DNA from: Giardia intestinalis
Lineage: Eukaryota
NCBI GenBank assembly: GCA_000002435.2
Contig: CM018792.1
Strand: one strand, 5' to 3'
DNA length: 64,000 nt
The notes beneath the pieces are model-generated. The model ran no database searches. It worked only from the letters and a program-made list of their open reading frames with translations, and was not told where the DNA came from. The translations under genes were made by a program, and so were the position numbers. This document shows positions 34,601-45,900 of the stretch, one piece after another; position 1 is the first letter of the stretch, and each line of letters opens with the position of its first letter.

Positions 34601-34631
34601 GCTGGTCCCTCTGCTGATCTCTGCGGGGCAT
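25686..34631 (-). CDS. Giant 2981-aa hypothetical protein, probably an alpha-helical (HEAT/ARM-like) scaffold
   Basis: A single uninterrupted ORF with a verified ATG. It is Leu-rich and helical throughout. No P-loop, kinase, RING or WD signatures were seen. Confidence 0.5.
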   Translation of the reverse strand: MPRRDQQRDQLTPIYDTRTKTTKYHDYFSLMAHFNIDSTRSKHYDTDLPEDQRISLFSAKLEELQAGNDHGVFLSLCDDVMLNYRLLVQVLYDPDGLFSIIENALNALTLEDPNSSDFIASKTVYLSIIRALPDLFRDLGPSNKHFILTSLTLLRLNGVCKHPELFVGAIQSLLLSLKYLGGAIPEGIWGAILSYVEQMERMLWPGLAEIPAYLVRVHSRHDDCMSEIFTSIAGPLESTMANLVLLLACRHPDGTLHSRFDIIIGSYFSIPKSDTENWLVDLTTLFAEAEMDSSALSQVILSITGHALKLLSDPSQQHETQNALLSLAMFYPNKMTFSGINDLYHLIVANKEALNRSLYLLTLCLLAISTSLHAECKDDLVATFFKQFHADLCNYNVFYSLYVMVQDFSRHHKRDIFIDTFKSVYSSSLSEDHSPYIRLYLFCEGVCDSPSGSELDAIVEAIERDFVHELENETGSMLCTVLACLYSRSLLSRKHTQALQSLLQSIDASYLNMLSVGRIAKKPAVLTTQGALITTLLSLLIQVTPGSPEYFFTLLESIVSIQYDSLFDVLATRLAGASLDELYATLLNSELPLIMLTSPNGVMRRSMLKIVSLLGGASRGFAIIGQYASLFPLTNVFEVQHIMTQLQKQLLGFLEVSSAKANDDSARVISIVAAATCGLLYMRFAPVADGAIDLLRLFAEMRPAEVSYVFERYLWKFVFELTAYEVKNPVFELIHNFSMEAEYPYPYTLDGQDDQGAEERVYRSDNKFRARIMTAEREQIAVRLNLLVDKATVRSTHLLTSKVVAQLLLGINTIKYIGVNTILPSESLKIVTLLAEKAIWMTHFTNIFSDACVCGLIAAYVKRINLGNTSEGYEGSEIHSRSMDLMSKLFCLLADRIVDDSRAKLMGAIKLVFSTASLEYMVPNCVILYYFLTKAPFIHVLGRMANLQTFTDQLLSLRFSGSEVAEPPYKLTRAGFDELYELCTKKLSRKQMYERDYGGISLIHEAYRADFMDIALYLMAGKVVRTGRSFNYISGVANAAVGGRSVGSDDSRRRTIFAFAEQNMDPRERNRMYGILIAPIFSKLFHDVIIGGTEAEIVEFLLHRVDLEDICGLAARVPNVHGNMIRGFCNTCTMMLPYISSAYITTAYLHVVLILATFWFFDLDAHTHLTDWYNSSLDTYRADAVARNEAKKIPHQGVDIDGIEIDLIRSTILRTIRTFITCCLEITDSEARLQEIFNTGARQSTLTFFKVVYTLISKFHIKNESEPCSNSLVRMYTVLSRYPLRVERYMQWNYLFIDDLLVHLRPHPKQSLTILRVFTTLATALLDSCTQTLDTPEYTLLLEKLPSIKKEFTERLLLCLRKRLSTKYFREFTIGYTMPENLVSSLCRESLATVHTLLLCDAESKRFNVITPIIEELCEIFHYALNADSTEVSGAILRFYEFASPLCTHNLLLPLVMKNKLVDARPVLAKLFRCYGTVEAIESLNIPSEVYSKASTLSLRDHAEIYTLLYKLGIPHNESRLESIQHLSAYLCHSKMALGMALHFLTEGSDAERSAASTLLRTFTLKPPAEDSEHRDSWRAAQVLLLNYVHAYISQTVAHSTQLDSKRRRGRSELLSFMQVYAGYGADRRLLCDVREMLSAEDLAVLLDEEFNFDRELDSAAQWSMPSLRCLANAARPDYLCVYQLTDFVRLADASASARISAFGNVFSFLCNTLLGRLIMSNAFGCRLNQNIITNILIPISLQECLIANDDKLDTMFLNFLAACGLYLDWARYRTVLLYLLGQVNSSPNEGRLIQALNSLLDNFRFITASKNSSATQNESFDSDDTESSNESELEVSSDSGDTSIADDARDGSGNHPSLNLLSAPNTSLTVGFDTSSKENGPDAEQENQEFEKALSGMRTASYIRKNDLVIATAIEKTQKDQSEAVESSPDPLQLLFNSITDYAPAQVLSHVSRIFIPQVQRYINRRLGTTQNRYLLATTLSKLIAKLPWEQRQRRLNHLVIVILKDLASTDQDARAACRRCLSHISMLLGPRNLGTILLSIRTHCAKEFIGVHLAAYVYYEILEHVIMVPHRTLLAVIQNPSIILKLPYVDTSSCNVSPLPDAITPISLRQVIAVLVRDMFSAQAQEQKARSLLSIKHIEVGESRSADIIRLTAASLSFSNITQTVFFIEPLFRGCAYSFSSTQQDAIVHSLLAGWFVNSTVTEDALLEFVHYMMSPKCFYHALIPQIVDACNKLTKQEKIINARVEEDDLRRARAITDIRNEHLLLEPSPKRLYQGIGSISGGFSGVGSSYDTTVPHKLVGALLRHGIEKHYGDPYVHEYMPYFAAIASGTEESVHALPHAAQDPIATLPPPALRAPTISAERYPEIADYVLLMLSSRAAFCRASGFHSLAAMMPNYPTVRTKLIASECCKALYRTSDRQELEACFRLINVILTNDYDLFSTEDYSLIVKVSSLMLNKSLKSLLAFHMIQLIVEKNIDVPEIYETMTYFCKVAAMVEGHEQTASLVKALSHFIVTYEMTHKKRIVYIRNLLKVAAEFETNAGRRVVLACLHEVYRGLDAETLSGCVDISVVSFVVTISNCSQLAEGSDQVVSEAMQTLAVFIKRCEDTGYQRCPLYFIRSILANEKVLPQQTSVLILLSCLSETILSVADAEDVQEHVADACISALTTLLEVVVDLQDAVFGKMRKTRDNIDFVAASFRLFASVIQLLSLAPDFEAKYNALFVQLQGFFAEDTYRSVLLSAAPDLRSRSLTVCNILLSHVQEQPSSGSAEASLKPFLYLIEPYILSIGDTLLTNLDKHRTAVILGDLLCASAKDADASHYKVLNAFRLVDSTLLEIPASHPHLKISLIGAVLCFFSKFQKEDQCLLELLTKAFIQTLLRLRYFHTVETDPRYETAEEFEERNPEVLHERHVCDIVNSTLDKLEQISTGTRSFTELLSESEQAVDAEPFEPPERRFRRPVKKNSVLEAMLKVSYYIGDKD

Positions 34632-34709
34632 TAATTAAATCACAATGTTCATATTTTACTGCAATATAACATACTAAATTACAATTAATATACAAGCAAG
34701 CCCGCCAAC

Positions 34710-35672
34710 TTATCGGCACAGATGGGCTTCTAGAAAGCTGATATACGCTTCTAGTGTAGTGACGTTGTTGGGCACTATTAGGTTACCAACACCATCTTTT
34801 AGAGAAAGCTTATAGTATGCATGAAATAATCTTGTATTAAGCAGGTTATTCTCAACCAACTTTTTAGATCCGCTAGATAGCTTACTCAGCTTAGTATAAC
34901 AATCCGTAATCCTGTCAGCCTTTGCTGGAAACATGCGAGCTATAACACTGGTAATTGTCCTTGACAAAAGTCTGTTATCTATATGCTCCGTATTATCTGC
35001 GACGAACTTAGTTGCTCTAGCAGAAGGCCTATAATGGACACCTACTAGAGCCGAGTGACCTTGTAATTGATTCTGCCCATCAGTGCTAGGATAGGGAATA
35101 TGAGACGATTGAAGCTTTTCGGTTGTTTGGTGAGGCTCACCGTTGGGTCCCTTCAAAGGCTGGCCTCTCCGACCATCTCTACCATAGGCTGTTGACTGCG
35201 CACGCTTTCTACGCCGCAGAGTCACCTCAAGAGAGCCCCCGGTCTTTTTGGAAGGAGGAACAGAAATGGAAAGATTGATGCCACCGCTCTCCGAGTGAGA
35301 TCCAGCAGTGGGCTTTTCTGGAGAGGTAGTGGTTAACGGAAGCGCTCTAGTGATAGAAAATTGTGAGACAGCACGCTTATTCCTGGAGAAAATCAAAGGT
35401 GAAGATGATGCCGTAGCATTAGAGCTACAAGTCAAGGGAGACGACAAATTGGGAGCTTGAGTGAAGAAAAGAGAAGGGTTGCATGTCGGGACAACAGGAG
35501 CTAAGGGCTGCGAAGAAAATGCTATCCTTGTTGCTGTCGCTGAACCCGAGACAGGGTTCGCTCCAGAGAAAACGGTCGGTGATTCAGAGAAGGCAAGCTG
35601 GCCACTCGGCTCATCCCGCAGCGCTTGGTTGTGCAAGCACGTTCCATTAATGGCTGAAGAAGTTGCGGCCAT
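34710..35672 (-). CDS. Hypothetical protein with a Ser/Thr-rich N-terminal half
   Basis: 320-aa ORF with a verified ATG. No motifs were recognised. Confidence 0.4.
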   Translation of the reverse strand: MAATSSAINGTCLHNQALRDEPSGQLAFSESPTVFSGANPVSGSATATRIAFSSQPLAPVVPTCNPSLFFTQAPNLSSPLTCSSNATASSSPLIFSRNKRAVSQFSITRALPLTTTSPEKPTAGSHSESGGINLSISVPPSKKTGGSLEVTLRRRKRAQSTAYGRDGRRGQPLKGPNGEPHQTTEKLQSSHIPYPSTDGQNQLQGHSALVGVHYRPSARATKFVADNTEHIDNRLLSRTITSVIARMFPAKADRITDCYTKLSKLSSGSKKLVENNLLNTRLFHAYYKLSLKDGVGNLIVPNNVTTLEAYISFLEAHLCR

Positions 35673-35699
35673 GCGTTCAATTTTATTTCAGTTTAGTAT

Positions 35700-36776
35700 T
35701 CACAGCTCAAACTTTTCAGACGCAGACTCCTCACGCTGACAAGTAGTCGCACTATCTATCTCTGTCGGGACGCAATCAGCCATTAAACGCTTGCTCGGCC
35801 CAAAGATAGCATCGGGTCTATTGAGCAACAGGTCATTGAAGGTGGGATAAATGATTGGCGTGACAACTGTATTACTCCACTGCAGTGACTCCATGGGCAC
35901 TTCGGTGGCTCCCGACCAGCGAGTTGTTATGCTTATAGGCATTGGCAGTGCTTGCAGAGACTCGTCTGCGGGTGCTTTGGGCTCCTTGAAGTACACCGCT
36001 AGGCGGTCCTTGGAGACGGGCGTTCGGGGATTGCTTTGAATAATTCTTCCTGAGGAGATAAGCGACTGCATTCTGAAGCTGTCCCCGGTCCCTTTCACCG
36101 TGCTGTTGTCAGGATTGTGCTTGGCCTTCTGGATATCGAAAGCGGGAGAAAAGTCTAGGAGCCTTATCAAAAAGATGAAGGAGGGCCAGAGCCTGGAGTC
36201 TAGTGCTACACCCAAAAACTGATCGATATCTCTGTTCTTCTTTTCGTACTCATTGAAGGCTACAATCAAATAGAACGCAAAGGCATACAACTCAGATATG
36301 CGACTAATATAGTACGCCTGGCGAGGCATAAGCTTTGTGCCAAGAACACAGGAGACAGCACATTTAGATGTCATCTCACCGACTGTAAAATGTACCTCAA
36401 GAGGGCCTGTAAACCGCACTAAGGCAGCACCTATAGGGATAGACACATCAGTTGCCACAGCTTCAAAAGGCACGGTCATAAAGAGCCGCTTTAGGTTGTA
36501 GCAATCCCAGAATGATAGGATGTAATGAACAAGGGGAAGCGTAATGAGAACACGAAGGCTATAAGTAGTCCTAACACAGGTGGAGAGAATTGTATGAGTT
36601 TTCAAATATGCAAACGCGGCTTCTGGGTCAGTGAGAATCACCACGGGCTCTACATTTGAATAGACAAGACGGCTGCCGGCCGGGGGCTCTCTAAAGACAG
36701 GATTAATCAGGAAGGTTACACCTGCAGCCTGAAATATGTAGTATGGAACGGCTCCATCTGTGCACCGCGTATACAT
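35700..36776 (-). CDS. Hypothetical multi-pass membrane protein
   Basis: 358-aa ORF with a verified ATG. Several hydrophobic helices are present ('VTFLINPV', 'LITLPLVHYILSFW', 'LYAFAFYLIVAF', 'LWPSFIFLIRLL'). Confidence 0.4.
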   Translation of the reverse strand: MYTRCTDGAVPYYIFQAAGVTFLINPVFREPPAGSRLVYSNVEPVVILTDPEAAFAYLKTHTILSTCVRTTYSLRVLITLPLVHYILSFWDCYNLKRLFMTVPFEAVATDVSIPIGAALVRFTGPLEVHFTVGEMTSKCAVSCVLGTKLMPRQAYYISRISELYAFAFYLIVAFNEYEKKNRDIDQFLGVALDSRLWPSFIFLIRLLDFSPAFDIQKAKHNPDNSTVKGTGDSFRMQSLISSGRIIQSNPRTPVSKDRLAVYFKEPKAPADESLQALPMPISITTRWSGATEVPMESLQWSNTVVTPIIYPTFNDLLLNRPDAIFGPSKRLMADCVPTEIDSATTCQREESASEKFEL

Positions 36777-36822
36777 AACAACCAGATAGTCGGTATTTTC
36801 ATTTCAAAAAGTGGAAAGAACT

Positions 36823-38283
36823 ATGTCCAGCAATATCTACACAGCGCTTATGGAAGCCGCTCGAAAGGGCGACATGATCGCCTTGCGTCAAAATTTAAGA
36901 CAGCAGGCCAGGTTGAAGGACAACTTGGGCGTTACTGCGCTGATGTATGCAGCACAGGCGGGACGCTATGAAGCCGTTTCGCTCTTAGCTGAGTATGAGG
37001 CTGGGATGCAAGATTGGCGTGGGAAGACTGCTCTTATAACTGCTATTCAGAACGGGCACGCAGAGGTTGCCCGCATTCTGGTTCCCTACGAAACCGGACT
37101 GCGCGATACGGATGGCGCAACTGCTCTCATGAGCGCCGCCAGTATGGGGTTCAGTAGTCTCATTCAGGAGCTCCTGGAGAAAGAGGTAAAATGCGTAGAC
37201 GACAACGGAAAGACGGCCCTCATGTATGCCGCTGAATCAAACCAGGTTGATGCCGTCAGGATCCTTCTCAAGCACGAAGCAGGGATTCGGGACTCTAGTG
37301 GTCAGACCGCAATGATGTACGCTACCGTCAGCGGCAATATATCAGTCATTGAGCTTCTTTTGGGCTATGAAGCAGGGGTCTGCAAGGACAACGGCTGGTC
37401 CTGCCTTATGACCGCGGCTAAGTTGGGCAATTTTGAAGCTGCCGAGCTTCTGGCTCCAAAGGAGGCTTGCTTAGCAAAGCAGAACGGCATGACAGCACTT
37501 ATGGTTGCCGCACAATTCGACCACGAAGACATAGTGCGTCTCTTAATGGCTGCAGAGGGAAATATGGTTCGGAAAGACGGCCTGTCAGCAAGAAACATTG
37601 CTTCTCAGTTTGGAAACCACGACGTTGCAGATCTTCTCGCCAACTCCACCCACCTTTTTCTCCCGCCAAATCCCTCTGTTTCAGCAAAGTCTTCCAGAAA
37701 CGCTAACGGGCCCAGACCAGAAAATGATCCAAGCAAGGCCTTTACCTCCTCGACCCTCATGCCTCCTCAGCGGCATCAGTATCCCCATGCTCCGACAACA
37801 CCAACTACCAGGGGCGTGACTAAGCGGGAAGGCCATCAAGGACCCGGTGGATATAGCACGCCTGCATTAATAGAAAGCAACCATAATAACAGCAGTCATC
37901 CCGATGGCAACAATTCAAAGCTTGTAGAAAGCTACATTCTCTCTGAGGCCTCGCAGTTTGATAACATTACTTTGAACGCAACGCTAATGGATTCGGTTCA
38001 CTCGGGCCACTCTGCTTCCAATAATTCTAAAATACTAAAACTTATAACAGAAATAGATTGTAAAGATTGCGAGATCGACGCATTAAAAAAGCAGGTAACG
38101 CAGCTCCAAAACCAATTGTCCCACAAAGCAGACGGACTAGTGGATATAAAAGCTGACTATGTTTCTCAGGCTAGGCAGCTTCAGAAGATGGCCGAGTACA
38201 TGCTCGAATTTGCCAACGAAATTGAGCCTGGCATTAATTATATGAACTCGGCTACTACGCAGAAGTCTGATGCACTGAAATAG
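36823..38283 (+). CDS. Ankyrin-repeat plus coiled-coil protein, of the Giardia 'protein 21.1' type
   Basis: The track start is a GTG at 36811 and the first ATG is at 36823. There are at least six ankyrin repeats ('TALMYAAQAGRYEAVSLL', 'GKTALITAIQNGHAEVARIL' and others). A C-terminal coiled coil is present. The AGTGAAT polyadenylation motif sits 16 nt after the stop. Confidence 0.7.
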   Translation: MSSNIYTALMEAARKGDMIALRQNLRQQARLKDNLGVTALMYAAQAGRYEAVSLLAEYEAGMQDWRGKTALITAIQNGHAEVARILVPYETGLRDTDGATALMSAASMGFSSLIQELLEKEVKCVDDNGKTALMYAAESNQVDAVRILLKHEAGIRDSSGQTAMMYATVSGNISVIELLLGYEAGVCKDNGWSCLMTAAKLGNFEAAELLAPKEACLAKQNGMTALMVAAQFDHEDIVRLLMAAEGNMVRKDGLSARNIASQFGNHDVADLLANSTHLFLPPNPSVSAKSSRNANGPRPENDPSKAFTSSTLMPPQRHQYPHAPTTPTTRGVTKREGHQGPGGYSTPALIESNHNNSSHPDGNNSKLVESYILSEASQFDNITLNATLMDSVHSGHSASNNSKILKLITEIDCKDCEIDALKKQVTQLQNQLSHKADGLVDIKADYVSQARQLQKMAEYMLEFANEIEPGINYMNSATTQKSDALK

Positions 38284-38298
38284 TCGATAAGCTGTACT

Positions 38299-38305
38299 AG
38301 TGAAT
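38299..38305 (+). promoter_or_regulatory. Putative Giardia polyadenylation signal (AGTGAAT, which matches AGTRAAY) 16 nt after the stop of the ankyrin gene
   Basis: A direct sequence match in the position expected for Giardia 3' ends. Confidence 0.35.
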
Positions 38306-38766
38306 CTAGCATTTACTCCGTTTCAGAAAGTGACCTCATCAGCTGCAGCCCAAAGGCTGTCATCTGGGCCTCCCGAGTAACTGCTGGTCTTACATAGACT
38401 CACTTAGGTATTGCTCAAAGCACACTTCTTACACTCTGAACAGGAAGATATAGGCTGTCCCCAGATCTGCTCTCAAGGTAAAAGACTCACCTGGCTGTTG
38501 TCGGCCAGCTGAACCGTGTTCTTAGGGAATCGAGCAAGATAATCGCTTGCCGAAAAATAATCTGAAGGCTCGTTGATAAGTGAGACCTTCGGATACTCCA
38601 TAGTATCTGTTACTGACCAGAAGGGCGTGTTACATTCATATGTGTCTAGCTGGTGTCGGACGAGATAGTATTGGCAGATAGTCGGTGTCTGTGATTGCCA
38701 TTTATCCACAAGGCGACACTGCTCTTCTAGTCAGTCTATCATCTGCTCCTTGGCCTCCTTCACCGT

Positions 38767-39792
38767 GTGCCTCTGCTCAGACACTCTGAGCTTCCCGACT
38801 TCAGAAATATCATTGGGTATGGAGAGGATAGGACATCGTACATCATCTGCGGCACCCCCGGGATCGTCTCTGCTCTCCTTACGGCAGTCAAGCCGGCCTC
38901 GGGCACAGGTATCGCCTCCCGTGGAGCAACCTCGTTCCTGAAGCTGCGGCACGTGGTGATAGACGAGGCAGACCACATCCTCCTCAACGACAACACGTCC
39001 TTCCTGGCGCTCATCAGGGAGTTCTTCGCTCAACGGAACTCCACGGCCGTCTTCCGCGTGCCTCTCTTCTTCGCCCAGCGACACCGCCTTGGGCTTCCGA
39101 CGGACAGGTTTGTCTTCCTCTCTGCGACCATGAAGTACCGGGCGAGCCTGCTCGAGAACATGGGCCTCCACGGCGGGTGCATGGTGGACTTCGACGAGGG
39201 CCACGCGCGCCTTGCCCTCTCGCCCAACGTCGAACACTTCGTCGTCCAGCTCAAGCGGGTCTACTCCGAGATAGACATCACATACCTGGTCTTCAGGTTC
39301 CTCTGCAGCCCCGCCGGGTCCATCACCAACTCGAGGACGACCCTCCTGCCCTGCATCGTCTTCGTCAACTCCAGGCACACCGCGCAGCGCATCGCTCACC
39401 TGCTGTTCCTGATGATGATCAAGGTTTACAAAGAGCTCTGGTACAGGATAACGCTGGTGGCCCAGGGGCACGTCTTCCGGAGGCCGAACTTCGAGTCTGT
39501 CCCGGCCATCTCCAACGAGTCCCTCGAGGAACACCCTGCAACGATCGTCTTGGCAACTGATAACTTCGCCCGTGGGCTCGACCTTCCTGCGGTTCGCTCG
39601 GTGGTCAACTTCGATCCGAGCCGGGTCGTCTCCATAGACGAGAAGAGCCTCTGCGACTACCGGAGCACAGAGGGACCGCGGCTGTCCGACTTCTCCGTCG
39701 GGGACAGCGACGTGCTGGAGATCTCACGGAGGTTCAGCGAGAACACGGACATCTACCTGACCACCCTCTACGACGGGGAGTTCGGGCGCTAG
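38767..39792 (+). pseudogene. DEAD-box RNA-helicase-like ORF that lacks the N-terminal Q, Walker A and Ia region, so it is a probable gene fragment or pseudogene
   Basis: Motifs appear in canonical order: 'IICGTPGIV' (Ib), 'VIDEADHIL' (II), 'FLSATM' (III), 'IVFVNSRHTAQRIAHLL' (IV), 'LATDNFARGLDLP' (V) and a degenerate VI 'YRSTEGPR'. The frame is closed by TAG at 38728-38730, only 13 codons upstream. The track 'start' is a GTG and there is no AxTGSGKT motif. Confidence 0.45.
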
Positions 39793-39795
39793 GCG

Positions 39796-41706
39796 CTACA
39801 CGCCCTTGTGCGGAAGGTTCAGGTTGAGCGGGCTGTGGAAGATGTACTCCGGCGCGCAGAAGTAGTACTGCATGCAGTACCGGCCGAGGAAGAAGATGAC
39901 GATGGCCAGGGCCCCCACCAGGACGTAGTTCCACGCGCTGACCTCGAGGGCCTCGCACATCGTGCCCCCGTGCGCGTCGACCGTGTCCAGCCCGTTCACG
40001 CACCGCTTGACCTTGTTGTTGAACGGGGAGGCGCGGACGGCGTCTGCGATGGCGACCTTCTGGGCCTCGTCGGGCGCGGAGAGGAAGAGCGGGTGGACGC
40101 CGTCGCGGTCGGGCCCGTAGAAGCGGGGCATCGTGTACTCGACGGTCAGCTCGTGGCAGAGCGAGTTGGAGCCGCGGCCGATGTAGTAGTAGCCCGAGAC
40201 GCCCCAGCCGGTCCCCCACGAGTTGCGCAGGATCCAGACGGGCCGGCCCTTGTACGCCCCGTAGCCGACGAGCATGACCTGGTGGTTCGTGGTCGCGCGC
40301 ACGCACTTGACGTCGGGGAAGACGCCGCCCTTGTAGAGGTTGAACGTCAGCGCAGAGGCGACGACGGACTCGTAGTCCTTGTCGATCGACGTGTCGACGC
40401 CGGACTCTGTGTGCATGGCCGCCGCGACCCCGACCCCGCGGGCCAGGACGTTCATGACGTTCCGCTCCCACTCGGCGAACTTCCCCTTGTCCATCTCCTC
40501 GATGATGAGCCCCGAGGCCGGCACGCCCTCGTTCCGCAGGATCTGGTAGACGCCGAACTTATTTGGTGTCCCTGAGCCACCATTGACATCATACTCGTAT
40601 TCATCGCTACCTGCAGCCCCAGAATTAGAAGAGCTGCCCTTCTTCTTCATCGGCATGGAGACGAAGGCAGGGTTGAAGTCTCCTATATTGGCGTCCTGAC
40701 ACTTAGCACCATTGTCTGGGGCGGCCTTTTCGGGCGTCGCGTACTCCCTGTAGATGCACTCGGACTCCTTCGCGAGCTTGCTCAGCTTGTTGACGAAGTC
40801 TGCGATGGCGCGGAAGTAGTTTCCCCCGTTGCAGTAGTTCCCGCCGATGAGGTTGTCGAGGAGGAACTGGACGGAGAGGCGCAGGGTGGACGCGCTGTAG
40901 GACTTCCAGTTCTCGGGGATGTCGGTATACTCTTTCTCAGTACGATTTTGAACAGTTATCATTGCAGCGCAGTCATTACTCTTCTGACTGTCATCCTGGC
41001 TCGCAGGGGCCGAGCAGTTGCAGAAGTAGTTCGACGGAAAGGGCTGGGGATCGAGGTACTTCCCCCTCGTGTAGAGGTCTGCGTCGACGAGCATCAGGTT
41101 CTCGAGGACCTCGATGGTCGTGAACTCGTAGCAGGAGCCGCACAGGCCCTGGTCCTTCGCGCGGGTCACGAGGCCCACCTCGCGGAGGTCGACGGAGTGG
41201 GGGAGCGTCCGCTGCCTGTCTTTGACGTTCATGTCCCGCACGTCGACGAGGAAGAAGCTGTCCTGCTTCTTGCTCTTGTCGTCAGCGTTAGCACTCTGTG
41301 AATTAGCTTGAGTGTCTCCCTTCAGGTCCGGCCCCAGCTCGTAGGCATCGACGTTGCAGTTGGTGTACTTATTGGTTTTATTAGTCCAGTTGCACGCATC
41401 TGCAGCTGCGCTCCACTCGCCGCCCCCCAGCGACCGGGGCGGGAGGATGCCGGCGCGCGGGTGGCGGTCCATCCGGGACGTGATCCCGAAGGTGACGTGC
41501 TCGTGGCCCTCCCGGCGGAGCCTGCGGAGGTGCTCGAGGTGCATGCAGAAGTTCCGCTCCGCCTCCAGCCGGTCCCCGGGCGTGTCGTAGGCCTTCCCGT
41601 AGAGGCCGACGAAGCGCTCGAAGGCATGCTCGCACGCCATGTGGATGCTGAACGGGTCCCGCTCGGCCGATGCCGCGCAGAGGAAAGACAAAGTAAGCAG
41701 CAACAT
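39796..41706 (-). CDS. Cathepsin L-like papain-family cysteine protease carrying an I29 propeptide, large insertions and a C-terminal transmembrane helix
   Basis: A signal peptide 'MLLLTLSFLCAASA' is followed by an ERFNIN-like propeptide ('ERNFCMHLEHLRRL...VTFGITSRMD'). The catalytic residues are present: 'KDQGLCGSCYEF' (Gln and Cys), 'NHQVMLVGYG' (His) and 'NSWGTGWGVSGYYYI' (Asn). An insertion of roughly 150-190 aa sits between the Cys and His segments. The C-terminal hydrophobic stretch is 'YVLVGALAIVIFFLG'. The ATG start was verified. Confidence 0.7.
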   Translation of the reverse strand: MLLLTLSFLCAASAERDPFSIHMACEHAFERFVGLYGKAYDTPGDRLEAERNFCMHLEHLRRLRREGHEHVTFGITSRMDRHPRAGILPPRSLGGGEWSAAADACNWTNKTNKYTNCNVDAYELGPDLKGDTQANSQSANADDKSKKQDSFFLVDVRDMNVKDRQRTLPHSVDLREVGLVTRAKDQGLCGSCYEFTTIEVLENLMLVDADLYTRGKYLDPQPFPSNYFCNCSAPASQDDSQKSNDCAAMITVQNRTEKEYTDIPENWKSYSASTLRLSVQFLLDNLIGGNYCNGGNYFRAIADFVNKLSKLAKESECIYREYATPEKAAPDNGAKCQDANIGDFNPAFVSMPMKKKGSSSNSGAAGSDEYEYDVNGGSGTPNKFGVYQILRNEGVPASGLIIEEMDKGKFAEWERNVMNVLARGVGVAAAMHTESGVDTSIDKDYESVVASALTFNLYKGGVFPDVKCVRATTNHQVMLVGYGAYKGRPVWILRNSWGTGWGVSGYYYIGRGSNSLCHELTVEYTMPRFYGPDRDGVHPLFLSAPDEAQKVAIADAVRASPFNNKVKRCVNGLDTVDAHGGTMCEALEVSAWNYVLVGALAIVIFFLGRYCMQYYFCAPEYIFHSPLNLNLPHKGV

Positions 41707-41759
41707 CCGGTCCTTTTTTGGGCCGCGGGTAGGTTAGCCGTGTGCGGGACTTGCACACC

Positions 41760-42524
41760 CTACCGGGTCGCAGACAGGAAGAGGAGCCCGAAGAAGACGG
41801 CCGTGCTCGCCGTCACCCCCGCCACGGCCCCGATGTTCCTCACACGGCAGTCACATAGATCCCTGTGGTAGCCCTCGGCACAGACACAGGCATCCTTGTA
41901 GCACTCCCCGTGTCCTGTGCACACACTCCCAGCCAGACGAGTGTTCAGGTACTTCTTGCTGGCGCACAGCTGGCCATGGGGGACCGCGTCCTCGTCGCAC
42001 TGGCACGCAAGGGCGGCTGTGGCGTTCTGCACACACGTCCTGCCCCTTGCCTTGGGCGTCCAGTTGCAGGCAGCCCCGTTCTTCACGCACTGGGCGTGCA
42101 CGCACGTGCTGTTCAGCATCACAAAGCCGTCCTCACACTTGCACAGGTACTCTCCATCACTGTATAGGCATTCTCCGTGCGGGCACACAAAACCCGTGTC
42201 CGAAACACACCCCGCCGGGGCGCACCCGTGGTCCGGAATGTGCTTGAATGGTGGCACGCACAGACACTGGTGTCTCGCCGTGGAGTGGTCCAGTCGGCAG
42301 AGCAGAGAGCTCGTCAGGTTTGCCACGAAGCCGTCGGTGAGGATCGTGCTATTGTTGTTTCTGATGCTCTTATCAAGCATGTGGGGGTATCCGCAGAGCC
42401 GCTCTCCGACGACGCACTCGGCCGGGTAGCACAGCCCCTCGGGGGGAGTAGTCCTGGCAGGCGCCTGCGGGCTGTCTTGGTTGTCGGCTTCGGCTGCTGC
42501 CCTCGAGAGAACCCTGGGCTGCAA
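41760..42524 (-). CDS. EGF-like high-cysteine membrane protein with a C-terminal transmembrane helix. Its 5' end is uncertain.
   Basis: EGF-like modules are present ('CTGHGECYKDACVCAEGYHRDLCDC', 'CVHAQCVKNGAACNW'). The C-terminal TM is 'AVAGVTASTAVFFGLLFL'. The track start is a TTG and there is no N-terminal signal peptide. An in-frame TAG at 42549-42551 separates it from an upstream same-frame ORF. Confidence 0.45.
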   Translation of the reverse strand: MQPRVLSRAAAEADNQDSPQAPARTTPPEGLCYPAECVVGERLCGYPHMLDKSIRNNNSTILTDGFVANLTSSLLCRLDHSTARHQCLCVPPFKHIPDHGCAPAGCVSDTGFVCPHGECLYSDGEYLCKCEDGFVMLNSTCVHAQCVKNGAACNWTPKARGRTCVQNATAALACQCDEDAVPHGQLCASKKYLNTRLAGSVCTGHGECYKDACVCAEGYHRDLCDCRVRNIGAVAGVTASTAVFFGLLFLSATR

Positions 42525-42996
42525 CGCACTGCCACTTCCCGAGGATTCCTATGCAGTGCCTACTTCCTCGTGGGTAGAGCGGGCATAGAGGCACGGTCTT
42601 GCCGCAGGATCCAGTGGATGCTTGGAGACAGGTGACCCAACGATTTCGTAAAATAGCGCCGCAGAGGCCATGGAGCGAGCAGATGCAATAGGCAATGCGT
42701 TTACTACCGAGACGCCCTGCCCCTGCAGGTGGGCCCAGTGATACAGTGACAGCAATGTACAGGAGTGCACCCCGACCAATCACTCCACAAGAGAGGTGCG
42801 ATCTGAGTCCGGCCCTCACTGGTCCTGTTCCTATGGAAGTCAGAGAGAACTGCGCTATCAGCTGGCCTCCGGTTGGTGTGCTCCTATCTCGTCCTTCTCC
42901 AGTCCAACTGATCAAGAGAGCAAGAGCGGCTGTCTCTCACTGCTCGCGGTCAATGCACAAGTCTGGTGAAAGAGCAGTGGCATACGAACCCGGCTA

Positions 42997-45900
42997 ATGT
43001 TGATAGGATTTCTCCTAGTTTGTGCAACCGTGCTGGCAAAGAACAGCGGGAAGACCGCATGCGTGGCGGCCTCTAACACAGCATGCGCAGCAGCCCTGGA
43101 CACGGCGGGCTGCAAGACCTGCGGCCCCGACGCCCAGACGTGCCTGGACTGCAAGACTCCTGGCGAGAACGTGCAGCTCGATAAAAGAAGCTGCAAGGCC
43201 AACTGCCCGCAGAACTCCTCCCCCAACCAGAACGTCTGCGAGTGCGACCCGGGATTCAGCCTGAACAATGGAAAAGACGCGTGCGAGGCGGTTGCCAACG
43301 TCAACTGCGCAGCAGCCCTGGACACGGCGGGCTGCAAGACCTGCGGCCCCGACGCCCAGACGTGCCTGGACTGCAAGACTCCTGGCGAGAACGTGCAGCT
43401 CGATAAAAGAAGCTGCAAGGCCAACTGCCCGCAGAACTCCTCCCCCAACCAGAACGTCTGCGAGTGCGACCCGGGATTCAGCCTGAACAATGGAAAAGAC
43501 GCGTGCGAGGCGGTTGCCAACGTCAACTGCGCAGCAGCCCTGGACACGGCGGGCTGCAAGACCTGCGGCCCCGACGCCCAGACGTGCCTGGACTGCAAGA
43601 CTCCTGGCGAGAACGTGCAGCTCGATAAAAGAAGCTGCAAGGCCAACTGCCCGCAGAACTCCTCCCCCAACCAGAACGTCTGCGAGTGCGACCCGGGATT
43701 CAGCCTGAACAATGGAAAAGACGCGTGCGAGGCGGTTGCCAACGTCAACTGCGCAGCAGCCCTGGACACGGCGGGCTGCAAGACCTGCGGCCCCGACGCC
43801 CAGACGTGCCTGGACTGCAAGACTCCTGGCGAGAACGTGCAGCTCGATAAAAGAAGCTGCAAGGCCAACTGCCCGCAGAACTCCTCCCCCAACCAGAACG
43901 TCTGCGAGTGCGACCCGGGATTCAGCCTGAACAATGGAAAAGACGCGTGCGAGGCGGTTGCCAACGTCAACTGCGCAGCAGCCCTGGACACGGCGGGCTG
44001 CAAGACCTGCGGCCCCGACGCCCAGACGTGCCTGGACTGCAAGACTCCTGGCGAGAACGTGCAGCTCGATAAAAGAAGCTGCAAGGCCAACTGCCCGCAG
44101 AACTCCTCCCCCAACCAGAACGTCTGCGAGTGCGACCCGGGATTCAGCCTGAACAATGGAAAAGACGCGTGCGAGGCGGTTGCCAACGTCAACTGCGCAG
44201 CAGCCCTGGACACGGCGGGCTGCAAGACCTGCGGCCCCGACGCCCAGACGTGCCTGGACTGCAAGACTCCTGGCGAGAACGTGCAGCTCGATAAAAGAAG
44301 CTGCAAGGCCAACTGCCCGCAGAACTCCTCCCCCAACCAGAACGTCTGCGAGTGCGACCCGGGATTCAGCCTGAACAATGGAAAAGACGCGTGCGAGGCG
44401 GTTGCCAACGTCAACTGCGCAGCAGCCCTGGACACGGCGGGCTGCAAGACCTGCGGCCCCGACGCCCAGACGTGCCTGGACTGCAAGACTCCTGGCGAGA
44501 ACGTGCAGCTCGATAAAAGAAGCTGCAAGGCCAACTGCCCGCAGAACTCCTCCCCCAACCAGAACGTCTGCGAGTGCGACCCGGGATTCAGCCTGAACAA
44601 TGGAAAAGACGCGTGCGAGGCGGTTGCCAACGTCAACTGCGCAGCAGCCCTGGACACGGCGGGCTGCAAGACCTGCGGCCCCGACGCCCAGACGTGCCTG
44701 GACTGCAAGACTCCTGGCGAGAACGTGCAGCTCGATAAAAGAAGCTGCAAGGCCAACTGCCCGCAGAACTCCTCCCCCAACCAGAACGTCTGCGAGTGCG
44801 ACCCGGGATTCAGCCTGAACAATGGAAAAGACGCGTGCGAGGCGGTTGCCAACGTCAACTGCGCAGCAGCCCTGGACACGGCGGGCTGCAAGACCTGCGG
44901 CCCCGACGCCCAGACGTGCCTGGACTGCAAGACTCCTGGCGAGAACGTGCAGCTCGATAAAAGAAGCTGCAAGGCCAACTGCCCGCAGAACTCCTCCCCC
45001 AACCAGAACGTCTGCGAGTGCGACCCGGGATTCAGCCTGAACAATGGAAAAGACGCGTGCGAGGCGGTTGCCAACGTCAACTGCGCAGCAGCCCTGGACA
45101 CGGCGGGCTGCAAGACCTGCGGCCCCGACGCCCAGACGTGCCTGGACTGCAAGACTCCTGGCGAGAACGTGCAGCTCGATAAAAGAAGCTGCAAGGCCAA
45201 CTGCCCGCAGAACTCCTCCCCCAACCAGAACGTCTGCGAGTGCGACCCGGGATTCAGCCTGAACAATGGAAAAGACGCGTGCGAGGCGGTTGCCAACGTC
45301 AACTGCGCAGCAGCCCTGGACACGGCGGGCTGCAAGACCTGCGGCCCCGACGCCCAGACGTGCCTGGACTGCAAGACTCCTGGCGAGAACGTGCAGCTCG
45401 ATAAAAGAAGCTGCAAGGCCAACTGCCCGCAGAACTCCTCCCCCAACCAGAACGTCTGCGAGTGCGACCCGGGATTCAGCCTGAACAATGGAAAAGACGC
45501 GTGCGAGGCGGTTGCCAACGTCAACTGCGCAGCAGCCCTGGACACGGCGGGCTGCAAGACCTGCGGCCCCGACGCCCAGACGTGCCTGGACTGCAAGACT
45601 CCTGGCGAGAACGTGCAGCTCGATAAAAGAAGCTGCAAGGCCAACTGCCCGCAGAACTCCTCCCCCAACCAGAACGTCTGCGAGTGCGACCCGGGATTCA
45701 GCCTGAACAATGGAAAAGACGCGTGCGAGGCGGTTGCCAACGTCAACTGCGCAGCAGCCCTGGACACGGCGGGCTGCAAGACCTGCGGCCCCGACGCCCA
45801 GACGTGCCTGGACTGCAAGACTCCTGGCGAGAACGTGCAGCTCGATAAAAGAAGCTGCAAGGCCAACTGCCCGCAGAACTCCTCCCCCAACCAGAACGTC

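Follow-up and report, generated by a model that had tools for sequence, protein, structure and literature searches.

A duplicated helicase relic at the edge of a GC-rich, concertedly evolving repeat in Giardia intestinalis

Genes and gene fragments at the locus

The window, by which we mean the whole 64,000-nucleotide stretch of contig CM018792.1 that was analysed, derives from Giardia intestinalis strain WB C6. The unique left flank of the locus described here (locus II) is an ankyrin-repeat gene on the plus strand (36811–38283; Pfam Ank_2, E = 1e-88; GC3 0.53) that is collinear with contig L008 of strain P15. It is followed by a non-coding spacer (38284–38787; GC 0.48) that is unrelated to the helicase, contains stops in all frames and has no Rfam match. 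The helicase remnant itself occupies 38788–39792 on the plus strand and corresponds to codons 185–561 of a 561-residue parent, minus 43 codons. The mechanically defined open reading frame (ORF) runs from 38767 to 39792, and its 341 codons are open throughout, with neither a premature stop nor a frameshift in the WB copy; the in-frame stop that opens the reading frame has its last base at position 38731, and the first ATG is encountered only at 39130, codon 122 of the ORF. The remnant is unannotated in WB and a look-up of its product in the WB protein set returned no entry; a Logan assembly (P0039) encodes the same 341-residue product with one substitution. The N-terminal RecA domain was not found in frame upstream: the 480 bp preceding the ORF carry stops in all three plus-strand frames, and a tblastn search with the parent N-terminus gave no match anywhere in the window.

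The identity of the remnant as a helicase is unambiguous from its homology with intact proteins of 561 and 525 residues (E = 1e-185) and weak from Pfam alone; the Helicase_C match (PF00271) is borderline at 23.6 bits against a cut-off of 23.5, and the DEAD match (PF00270) falls below its cut-off (19.9 against 26), while the intact WB paralogue passes both models (DEAD 52.5, Helicase_C 42.5). The parent protein carries the Q-like, Walker A, DEAD, SAT and HRxGRxxR motifs. Of these, motif II (VVIDEADHIL) and motif III (FLSAT) are present in the remnant and align with the intact homologues, and the protein alignment shows the Q motif, motif I (Walker A, AxxGxGKT) and motif Ia to be missing, in agreement with a sequence-only reading that had recognized a 5'-truncated helicase in the first GC-rich ORF. 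Motif VI, which that reading described as degenerate, was in fact lost cleanly through a 129-bp (43-codon) in-frame deletion between 13-bp direct repeats. The scar lies at 39592–39614 on the plus strand, where one direct-repeat copy, TGGTCAACTTCGA, is left; in the alignment, DH_I, P15_II and the metagenome scaffold L004 all retain the 129 bp, and the motif is present as HRVGRCARG in L004, P15 and the intact DH and WB copies. The family is very divergent: the best PDB match is DDX42 at E = 0.008 over only 31 residues, and the homologues found were from Giardia only.

Only 3 nt separate the end of the helicase stop (39792) from the start of the neighbouring gene's convergent stop (39796), confirming the gap noted from the sequence. 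The intact loci possess the same convergent helicase and protease stops, separated by 3–4 nt; this proximity is thus not a product of rearrangement. The neighbour is a papain-family cysteine-protease gene on the minus strand (39796–41706; Pfam Peptidase_C1, E = 6e-31) that forms the core of a dispersed repeat. Its product matches KAE8303844 exactly, and three more WB paralogues fall into one 90% cluster. Next, on the same strand, comes a fragment encoding the C-terminal part of a large membrane protein of EGF-like type (41760–42524). It aligns to residues 1055–1367 of a 1374-residue P15 protein; its annotated product is the 206-residue HCMP KAE8303845 (41760–42380, by exact look-up), with weak Pfam EGF matches. 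A VSP gene, KAE8303846, follows on the plus strand (42997–47805) and contains a perfect tandem array of 16.3 units of 222 bp at 43084–46695.

The junction, the split locus and its converting copies

Helicase homology begins at a rearrangement junction, 38787|38788, placed at parent codon 185 by an alignment of six copies; blastn alignments to the intact loci start at 38788 or 38790. The suspicion raised from the sequence alone, that a rearrangement truncated the helicase at the edge of a GC-rich block with protease, EGF-like and VSP genes, was therefore well founded. The junction is the same in WB, L004, P15_II and P15_III, and because sequences assembled independently (P15 contigs L008 and L002; scaffold L004) also contain it, it is no sequencing artefact. 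Collinearity of the window with P15 L008 extends from 28682 to 42439, and about 310–500 bp of the non-helicase DNA left of the junction is also present in the positional orthologue of assemblage E (P15) and in L004. This spacer is common only to truncated, locus-II-type copies, with alignments that start at window position 38263 for L004 and 38476 for P15 L002; WB–P15 identity within it is 72%, as compared to a random level of ~47% against the intact loci. Because assemblage E and the metagenome scaffold carry the identical junction, the junction is ancient. Comparison of contigs places the WB-specific end of synteny with P15 at 42439|42440, to the right of which P15 possesses a full EGF-like gene, AspRS and an aminotransferase gene, and WB a spacer and the VSP gene.

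Gene order across these genomes shows that the ancestral locus carried, in sequence, a gene for a 268/306-residue protein, the helicase, (the protease), the EGF-like gene, AspRS and the aminotransferase; G. muris still has this order, without the protease. Before assemblages A and E diverged, in their shared ancestor, this locus was split into two overlapping loci. At locus I, the left flank and the complete helicase are retained along with the protease, and only a 3' stub remains of the EGF-like gene; locus II, the one in the window, retains helicase codons 185–561, the protease and the EGF-like gene, in P15 also the right flank, and is joined on its left to the 3' flank of the ankyrin gene. 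The left neighbour found in G. muris is kept at locus I (blastp E = 7e-49), and the right neighbours found in G. muris are kept, with order and orientation unchanged, at P15 locus II (EGF-like 38%, AspRS 71%, aminotransferase 61% identity). The syntenic G. muris genes are orthologues of the helicase and EGF-like parts, with full-length identities of 41% and 38%, respectively. Locus II was the source of further copies. Later, the WB copy lost motif VI through the deletion described above. In WB, the EGF-like gene was broken as well, at ~42440, and the VSP now follows there.

The two loci overlap by 3.3 kb, and this overlap is therefore the dispersed repeat (38788–42122, delimited by blastn to L009, identity tables and site patterns). 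It comprises the helicase remnant, the protease gene and the EGF-like fragment, and is present in at least 3–4 copies per genome, on three chromosomes in WB and at loci L001, L002 and L008 with different flanks in P15. An intact 561-residue helicase, KAE8302841, resides beside a paralogous protease on another WB chromosome, so that the idea of a lost gene is not supported; intact homologues are likewise present in P15 (GLP15_5040), DH (ESU35927) and G. muris.

For the helicase part, WB_II and DH_I are 96.7% identical and P15_II and P15_I 96.4%, as against 88.8% for WB_II and P15_II. Of the four-taxon informative sites in the DNA, 118 grouped the copies by genome, only 2 grouped them by locus, and 2 showed another pattern; P15 and DH are short-read assemblies in which paralogues may be partly collapsed, which for WB is mitigated by a protein comparison using WB_I from the same long-read assembly (mismatches 9/304 against 40/289; 28 sites by genome, 1 by locus). 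Clustering follows genome rather than locus, and the copies have hence repeatedly overwritten one another since the A/E divergence. The outermost part of the repeat (38788–38877, plus strand) is homologous to the intact gene and is not homogenised: paralogue mismatches number 10/90 and 19/62 in these first 90 bp as compared to 0–4/90 further in, site patterns are 2:2:3, and paralogue divergence equals orthologue divergence. Homogenisation thus fades out some 90 bp before the homology itself ends. Taken together, the 3.3-kb segment is a dispersed segmental duplication under concerted evolution, in that its junction predates the split and its paralogues surpass its orthologues in likeness.

These comparisons characterize the ORF as an apparently non-functional relic of a Giardia-specific DEAD-box helicase. 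Judged by its structure, it is a duplicated (unprocessed) pseudogene whose functional parent, KAE8302841, resides elsewhere in the genome (9/304 residues differ over positions 215–561) and whose 5' coding region and start have been lost. We considered whether the remnant might instead be alive, producing a truncated protein (the RecA2-like domain only, or a product from the ATG at 39130) with a regulatory or dominant-negative role. In favor are the 341 open codons without stop or frameshift, a dN/dS of 0.23 relative to the intact paralogue, and the annotation of a sister truncated copy in WB as a 263-residue protein (KAE8305603). However, an open frame and a low dN/dS are expected if the remnant is continually overwritten by an intact donor. 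The absence of Walker A and Q motifs, the deletion of motif VI, the first ATG at codon 122, the missing WB annotation, the different disabling lesions of sister copies (in P15, a frameshift of 28 bp and a deletion of 45 bp; in L004, a deletion of 45 bp) and the dN/dS of 0.65–0.68 among P15 paralogues all speak against a live protein, and we deem it improbable.

GC enrichment of the converted zone

In 500-bp windows, GC outside the block averages 0.477 (sd 0.025, maximum 0.552, n = 110); between 39000 and 46999 it averages 0.624 (minimum 0.554), 5.8 sd higher. Change-point analysis and GC profiles delimit a block at 38849–46850 with a mean GC of 0.62. A maximum-likelihood change-point fit to raw GC puts the left edge at 38848 (support 38813–38858), and the right edge is at 46850 (46823–46899), within the VSP gene. 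An abrupt switch had been read from the sequence at about 38.73 kb; the switch is real (0.477 to 0.62), but its position was misplaced, 38731 being the end of a stop codon. The rise sits 60–140 bp inside the junction rather than on it, and the first ~90 bp of the repeat, at GC 0.53, are without enrichment. Nearly all of the increase falls on codon position 3, with GC1 and GC2 the same as in the flanks. The helicase remnant has a GC3 of 0.84, the protease one of 0.88 and the EGF-like ORF one of 0.79; for the VSP repeats the value is 0.83 (up to 46998, 0.45 thereafter). Flanking genes have 0.52–0.53, bearing out the GC-ending codons noted earlier. Allowing for codon bias does not render GC uniform: the effect lies at third positions, but is abrupt within single genes. 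The very little non-coding sequence in the block is also raised, at GC 0.64 (53 bp) and 0.57 (472 bp) relative to 0.48 outside. The spacer left of the junction, duplicated in P15 (98.8% identical), has a GC of only 0.57 there and 0.48 in WB, a point against conversion as the source of the enrichment.

Given that duplicated copies inherit composition, causality is addressed only by the intact-gene and assemblage B comparisons. In the intact P15 and DH genes, GC3 rises from 0.46–0.48 to 0.88–0.89 after codon 231–233 within an uninterrupted ORF (change-point support codons 217–236, ΔlnL 58–60), and the G. muris helicase shows no GC3 change point (ΔlnL 2); therefore, truncation did not create the GC switch, contrary to the sequence-only reading taken literally. 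The full-length P15 EGF-like gene has a GC3 of ~0.44 for 1037 codons and then 0.69 beside the protease, and its G. muris counterpart is flat; this rise starts ~150 codons outside the segment common with locus I, which counts against the fit to a conversion zone. In assemblage B, the copies begin at ~codon 30, with apparently at least 2 per genome (two contigs of one metagenome sample, possibly two strains). The same N-terminal codons have a GC3 of 0.74 in assemblage B, 0.35–0.37 in assemblages A and E, where they are single copy, and 0.49 in G. muris. GC enrichment is thus limited to the converted zone and missing from single-copy orthologous sequence. The ratio of W→S to S→W changes was 33:60 among homogenised and 18:46 among copy-specific changes (odds ratio 1.4, P = 0.39), and a direct signature of biased conversion did not emerge. 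At third positions, the equilibrium implied by the substitutions, GC3*, is 0.61, only marginally above the 0.45–0.52 of the flanks (P = 0.015–0.11) and well below the present 0.84–0.88; the estimate depends on polarising changes by parsimony against a remote outgroup (dS ≈ 0.64), which is unreliable. With GC3* well below present GC3, the enrichment may be largely a relic from before the A/B/E split that is now eroding.

The best explanation overall, which we hold with moderate confidence, is that a relic helicase, a split locus and a 3.3-kb repeat owe their GC-richness to GC-biased interlocus gene conversion; copying among the repeats, rather than breakage of a gene, is the likeliest cause. 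GC-richness would then be a by-product of conversion: because mismatch repair of heteroduplexes would favour G/C, synonymous sites of the converted zone would drift to a GC3 of ≈ 0.85–0.9, and unconverted parts of the very same genes would remain at 0.35–0.5. If so, the switch at ~38.85 kb would mark where conversion begins, slightly inward of the repeat's own boundary, and the tandem array in the VSP gene, itself a repeat that recombines intensively, may carry the GC-rich block on to 46.85 kb.

The competing proposal that a recent, isolate-level rearrangement cut a working helicase and juxtaposed AT-rich and GC-rich DNA, producing the switch, draws on the genuine junction at 38787|38788, on the unrelatedness of the DNA to its left to the helicase locus, and on the isolate- or lineage-specific break of WB at ~42440, on the other side of the repeat with the VSP next. 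We regard it as very unlikely. The comparison of assemblages upheld the junction and not its implied recency, since the junction and the DNA to its left are shared by P15 and L004 with the 10 kb upstream collinear; intact genes without the junction show the same GC3 jump, WB still has an intact paralogue, and GC rises inside the junction. A pre-existing double-strand-break hotspot at the protease gene, causing GC-richness and, independently, breakage, duplication and ectopic conversion, with copy number as a consequence, is a possibility that we consider unlikely; enrichment would arise by allelic biased conversion among the four genome copies of Giardia or by local mutational bias. In its favor, each of the three assemblages has a GC-rich block, which makes the enrichment older than their split, and current substitutions suggest near-equilibrium or erosion rather than a continuing rise. 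Several independent breakpoints cluster at the block margins (at codon 185 in A/E and codon ~30 in B, at ~42122 for locus I and at ~42440 in WB), the right-hand GC3 rise runs past the repeat, and conversion occurs preferentially in GC-rich regions (PMC12669663). A hotspot, however, leaves unexplained both why the GC3 boundary follows lineage-specific copy boundaries (~codon 231 in A/E, upstream of codon 57 in B) and why the duplicated but unconverted 90 bp are GC-poor, and the syntenic G. muris site lacks GC elevation.

Codon selection linked to expression, whereby the block genes would be highly expressed with G/C-ending optimal codons and the remnant would have inherited their usage, accords with the restriction to third positions and with the correlation in Giardia between GC3 and CAI-based 'expression' (PMC8393687). 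It is nonetheless hardly credible in view of abrupt GC3 switches within single transcripts (helicase 0.46 to 0.88, EGF-like 0.44 to 0.69), identical codons that differ by assemblage (0.74 versus 0.36), an untranslatable remnant still at GC3 0.84, and raised spacers (0.57–0.64 versus 0.48). A foreign origin of the block, through lateral transfer or introgression out of a GC-rich lineage, is extremely improbable: the atypical composition and the lack of the protease gene at the syntenic G. muris site would fit, but G. muris has orthologues of both the helicase and the EGF-like part at this same locus, GC1 and GC2 lie in the usual Giardia range (PMC8393687), and all homologues found belong to Giardia.

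Related systems and implications

For GC-biased interlocus conversion, a close intragenic parallel is the mouse gene Fxy/Mid1, which reportedly spans the pseudoautosomal boundary (Perry and Ashworth, 1999; Montoya-Burgos et al., 2003). The 3' part of Fxy lies in a highly recombining zone and has a very high GC3, the 5' part is ordinary, and the switch is sharp and intragenic. The Giardia helicase is likewise a single gene with a GC3-high 3' part in a converting zone and an ordinary 5' part. A W→S fixation bias is well documented for Fxy, whereas the Giardia counts given above were not significant. The driver differs: allelic meiotic recombination in the pseudoautosomal region for Fxy, and what would be ectopic conversion among dispersed repeats in Giardia, in which, to our knowledge, meiosis has not been demonstrated. 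Multigene families such as the mammalian histone and Hsp70 paralogues are also reported to be GC-enriched by ectopic gene conversion (Galtier, 2003; Kudla et al., 2004). They share concerted evolution and a GC3 above that of single-copy relatives; there, however, whole functional genes convert, whereas the Giardia unit is a segment cutting two genes, with most helicase copies pseudogenes. As with unprocessed pseudogenes at the edges of segmental duplications, the fragment exists because a duplication boundary fell within a gene, has no start codon or promoter-proximal exonic sequence, and gathers deletions; unlike them, its frame is unusually intact, plausibly via conversion from a functional copy.

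Twenty-two DEAD-box RNA helicases (SF2) have been catalogued in Giardia (PMC3566956). The parent carries the motifs of this family and passes the Pfam DEAD and Helicase_C models, and the window copy differs in lacking RecA1 up to motif Ia as well as motif VI. In Giardia, GC enrichment has been reported for genes that lie in inferred conversion tracts, whose median length is 3.3 kb (PMC12669663). The Giardia 'variome' denotes non-syntenic, GC-richer chromosomal regions bearing VSP and HCMP genes, with GC-enriched ~3-kb conversion tracts in assemblage A and a published list of 89 genes (bioRxiv 10.1101/2022.03.07.483299; PMC4570179; PMC12669663). The locus resembles the variome in organism, in its VSP, HCMP/EGF-like and cysteine-protease genes, in raised GC, in synteny breaks between assemblages, in a tract of ~3.3 kb and in the association of conversion with GC. 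Those reports are genome-wide statistics that treat GC-richness as a property of conversion sites, whereas here the boundaries can be placed within tens of bases; they lie inside intact ORFs, at the point where paralogue homogenisation stops.

The case is a tidy illustration of already known processes. Beyond the locus, we raise the tentative proposal that the heterogeneity of GC3 and codon usage in Giardia, along with its GC-rich variome islands, may stem mainly from GC-biased ectopic conversion among dispersed repeats and not from expression-linked selection. If this were true, the helicase would be an 'Fxy-like' natural experiment, GC3-poor where single-copy and GC3-rich where repeated, with a GC3 boundary that shifts between assemblages along with the repeat boundary, and would provide direct evidence of a recombination-repair bias in a lineage of disputed sexuality.

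The helicase remnant and its breakpoint

The open reading frame at 38767–39792 (+ strand, 341 codons) was described from the sequence alone as a 5′-truncated DEAD-box helicase lacking the Q motif and Walker A, and this description holds. Its Pfam scores are weak (Helicase_C, 23.6 bits with the cut-off at 23.5; DEAD, 19.9 with the cut-off at 26), and a PDB sequence search returned no more than a 31-residue match around motif V, which gives no subfamily placement; identification as a helicase stems from homology to intact relatives of 561 aa in the isolates P15 (assemblage E), DH and WB (both assemblage A) and of 525 aa in Giardia muris. These relatives bear a PIQ Q-like motif, ASATGSGKT, DEAD, SAT and HRVGRCARG, and pass both Pfam models. 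The member listing of the 90% cluster contains an intact WB paralogue, KAE8302841 (561 aa), and a truncated one, KAE8305603 (263 aa). Residues 1–184 of the parent are missing from the remnant. That a frameshift or sequencing error hides the N-terminal RecA domain was rejected: stops occur in all three forward frames upstream of the remnant, and a tblastn search with the parent N-terminus found no match anywhere within the window.

The second loss is internal. Motif VI, thought on first reading to be degenerate, is gone altogether with the rest of a 43-codon segment. The 129 bp were cut out cleanly between two direct repeats of 13 bp (TGGTCAACTTCGA), a deletion that is present, among the copies examined, in the window copy only. 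The first in-frame ATG is ORF codon 122, and the WB protein set does not include the ORF. Lacking ATP-binding motifs, motif VI and an early ATG, the remnant is probably non-functional. The 3-nt gap between its stop and that of the convergent protease, also remarked upon in the sequence-only reading, is real and not peculiar to the truncated copy; it is the native layout at intact loci too. Sister truncated copies are damaged in other ways, by a frameshift of 28 bp and by losses of 45 bp between FFAQR repeats. In the alignment of copies, A1, the 45-bp loss between two FFAQR-coding repeats occurs in the metagenome scaffold L004 (~columns 265–280) and in P15 copies II and III, the 28-bp frameshifting loss in P15 copies II and III, and the 129-bp loss in WB (39592–39614). 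These independent deletions between short direct repeats suggest that slippage or microhomology-mediated deletion is common among the truncated copies. dN/dS is 0.23 between the remnant and the intact paralogue, and 0.65–0.68 for the P15 pairs; an open frame and a value of 0.23 would be expected if a functional donor overwrote the copy from time to time. A term search of a helicase survey (PMC3566956) found no mention of these truncated copies.

An alignment of six copies placed the junction at 38787|38788. To its left, identity to the intact locus is ~47%, as expected at random. The left-hand DNA has homologues in L004, aligning from 38263, and at 72% identity in two P15 copies, aligning from 38476. 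Collinearity with the window extends over 28682–42439 in the P15 contig that bears GLP15_1857–1859, and a Logan assembly also contains the 341-aa remnant product. Shared in this way, the truncation is older than the split between assemblages A and E and is not an assembly error. The spacer to the left of the junction (38476–38787) has a GC content of 0.57 in P15, which has it in two copies that are 98.8% identical, versus 0.48 in WB; this single comparison would fit a copy-number effect.

In assemblage B, the helicase copies (L003, 9920–11155; L006; L007, 3903–4535; L010, 3465–4247) are truncated elsewhere: they start at about residue 30, with a divergent VSP gene immediately upstream, and are frameshifted. 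The helicase thus seems, from these sequences, to be decaying independently in assemblage B. L007 and L010 are two distinct copies, 91.7% identical, from one sample; the L010 copy turns into unrelated sequence past approximately codon 245.

Two derivatives of an ancestral locus

In G. muris, the gene order is a 268-aa gene, the helicase, a convergent EGF-like gene, AspRS and an aminotransferase. The left neighbour of the helicase is retained (E=7e-49) at locus I, the site of the intact helicase in P15 (L001) and DH (L009), which ends with the protease gene followed by a 193-aa stub of the EGF-like gene. Locus II, in the window and in P15 (L008), consists of an ankyrin gene, the truncated helicase and the protease; the P15 version continues, as in G. 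muris, with a complete EGF-like gene of 1374 aa and with the AspRS and aminotransferase genes (L008, 13142–20782). The neighbours retained at each locus show that an ancestral locus was split into two derivatives, which overlap over window positions 38788–~42122. Staggered breaks on different homologues in the tetraploid, or a replicative event, may account for this overlap. Other truncated copies (P15 GLP15_2222 and GLP15_2264; WB KAE8305603) each adjoin a protease paralogue. A further break at ~42440, found in WB only, cuts the EGF-like gene to a fragment followed by a VSP; the annotated 206-aa HCMP KAE8303845 is the C-terminal stub of the 1374-aa EGF-like gene. A reciprocal product was sought: neither the sequence lying right of the L009 stub nor that lying left of P15 copy III matched anything in the window. 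In DH, a weak RVT_1 reverse-transcriptase fragment (L009, 16785–17174), some 2.5 kb beyond the EGF-like stub on its right, hints at a retroelement near the other end of the ancestral split.

The cysteine protease KAE8303844 (39796–41706, − strand, 636 aa; exact protein look-up) has a Peptidase_C1 domain in two Pfam stretches and, by eye, CGSC…NHQ…NSWG catalytic-type motifs and a hydrophobic C-terminus; at least four protease copies in WB are >90% identical. The G. muris locus has no protease at this point, and its helicase shares 4 nt with the EGF-like gene convergent to it (L005, 11575–11578). In G. intestinalis, a 1.9-kb papain-family protease lies between the two genes, its stop 3–4 nt from that of the helicase (window 39793–39795).

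Concerted evolution and the position of the GC switch

We queried the relationships among the copies using DH (AII) DNA as a proxy for the assemblage-A locus I, with the intact WB protein (WB_I) compared as protein. Over the helicase part, copies within a genome are alike (WB_II–DH_I, 96.7%; P15_II–P15_I, 96.4%) and copies of the same locus less so (WB_II–P15_II, 88.8%; DH_I–P15_I, 90.7%). Between 38878 and 41379, 118 informative four-taxon sites group the sequences by genome, two by locus and two otherwise. Protein mismatches with WB_I, 9/304 versus 40/289, and site patterns of 28:1 agree; WB_I comes from the same long-read assembly as the window, which excludes assembly collapse. Over the first 90 bp past the junction, paralogues have diverged from each other no less than orthologues have (10/90, 19/62; patterns 2:2:3). 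The remnant is an ancient helicase pseudogene fragment, and it borders a dispersed repeat of 3.3 kb that is under concerted evolution.

Exact protein look-ups (GL50803_3465/KAE8303842, KAE8303844, KAE8303845 and KAE8303846) place the window on the 2.76-Mb chromosome of WB C6. The abrupt compositional switch reported from the sequence alone is confirmed in 500-bp windows, with a mean GC of 0.477 outside the block (sd 0.025, maximum 0.552) versus 0.624 inside it (39.0–47.0 kb). Maximum-likelihood change points fall at 38848 (support 38813–38858) and 46850 (46823–46899); position 38731, initially taken as the GC edge, belongs to the in-frame stop after which the reading frame runs open. In genes, the rise resides in third codon positions, with GC1 and GC2 unchanged: the helicase ORF has a GC3 of 0.84, the protease 0.88, the EGF-like ORF 0.79 and the VSP repeats 0.83, against 0.52–0.53 for neighbouring genes. 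Spacers have a GC of 0.57–0.64 within the block versus 0.48 outside. A foreign origin of the block is ruled out by orthology with G. muris and by the normal GC1 and GC2.

The right-hand part of the block lies in the VSP KAE8303846 (42997–47805, + strand; exact protein look-up), within which a 222 bp × 16.3 tandem array, 100% identical, occupies 43084–46695. Some 150 bp past the end of the array, GC drops from 0.63 to 0.50, and GC3 in the unique C-terminal part of the gene is only 0.45. A 1341-aa ORF antisense to the array (42912–46937, − strand) is a mechanical by-product of the stop-free repeated unit and not a gene; antisense ORFs likewise overlie the GC3-rich helicase (38731–39534, − strand) and protease (39808–40575, + strand). 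Long antisense ORFs were dismissed as genes, being expected by-products of GC3-rich or repetitive sequence; the one at 38731–39534, the only one tested, had no Pfam match. An Rfam scan of 36–48.5 kb returned no matches.

The switch is also present inside intact genes. GC3 in the intact helicase rises from 0.46 to 0.88 past codon 231 in DH (support 217–234) and from 0.48 to 0.89 past codon 233 in P15 (231–236), with ΔlnL of ~58–60; GC3 in the G. muris orthologue stays level (≈0.55, ΔlnL 2). Measured from the homology edge at codon 185, the jump comes ~140 bp further in, at the point where homogenisation starts, and GC of the unconverted edge is 0.47–0.53. The full P15 EGF-like gene has a GC3 of 0.44 over 1037 codons and 0.69 after, and its G. 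muris counterpart is flat. The GC switch marks the edge of an apparent conversion zone and occurs in the intact parent gene too. The breakpoint proposed in the sequence-only reading is thus a true junction that truncates the helicase, but it did not make the GC switch.

Causes and implications of the GC enrichment

Giardia GC3 spans 26% to 99%, a range ascribed to expression (PMC8393687). Expression-linked codon selection is ruled out here by the intragenic contrasts and by those between lineages: GC3 over the N-terminal helicase codons is 0.74 in assemblage B, 0.35–0.37 in assemblages A and E, where this part is single-copy, and 0.49 in G. muris. The pattern fits a GC-biased form of gene conversion acting between the dispersed copies, and the VSP array, as another recombining repeat, would then prolong the GC-rich block. 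Biased conversion is the best-supported cause of the GC-richness, and is unproven. In direct tests of the bias, the balance of A/T to G/C against G/C to A/T changes did not differ significantly between homogenised and copy-specific changes (OR 1.4, P=0.39). Equilibrium GC3 at third positions (GC3*) was 0.61, marginally over a flank-like process (P=0.015–0.11) and under the current 0.84–0.88; as GC3* is below current GC3, most of the enrichment may be older than the A/B/E split. Biased conversion has a live rival in a local break hotspot that underlies both the GC-richness and the rearrangement. On the right-hand side, the GC rise begins ~150 codons beyond the segment shared with locus I.

The closest analogues known outside Giardia are the mouse Fxy gene, which spans the pseudoautosomal boundary, and the histone and Hsp70 paralogues, which are GC-enriched by ectopic conversion. 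Within Giardia, one study, which lists 89 conversion genes, reports that genes in inferred assemblage-A conversion tracts (median tract 3.3 kb) are GC-enriched and include an excess of VSPs (PMC12669663); the variable Giardia ‘variome’ is home to cysteine proteases, VSPs and HCMPs (PMC4570179). Our literature search found no description of the remnant, of the split locus or of the GC3 switch within the gene. With GC-rich VSP regions, GC-enriched tracts and GC-biased conversion in gene families already known from Giardia or other organisms, the locus is a clean instance and not a new principle.

For annotation, the ORF at 38.8–39.8 kb merits a flag as a helicase pseudogene fragment. The locus offers a base-pair-resolution view of how one ancestral Giardia locus gave rise to overlapping derivatives, the overlap then turning into a family of repeats whose members evolve in concert although they lie on different chromosomes. 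If the link to GC is causal, it would furnish a compact, testable case of GC-biased conversion in Giardia, and would caution against equating GC3-rich codon usage with high expression in this organism.
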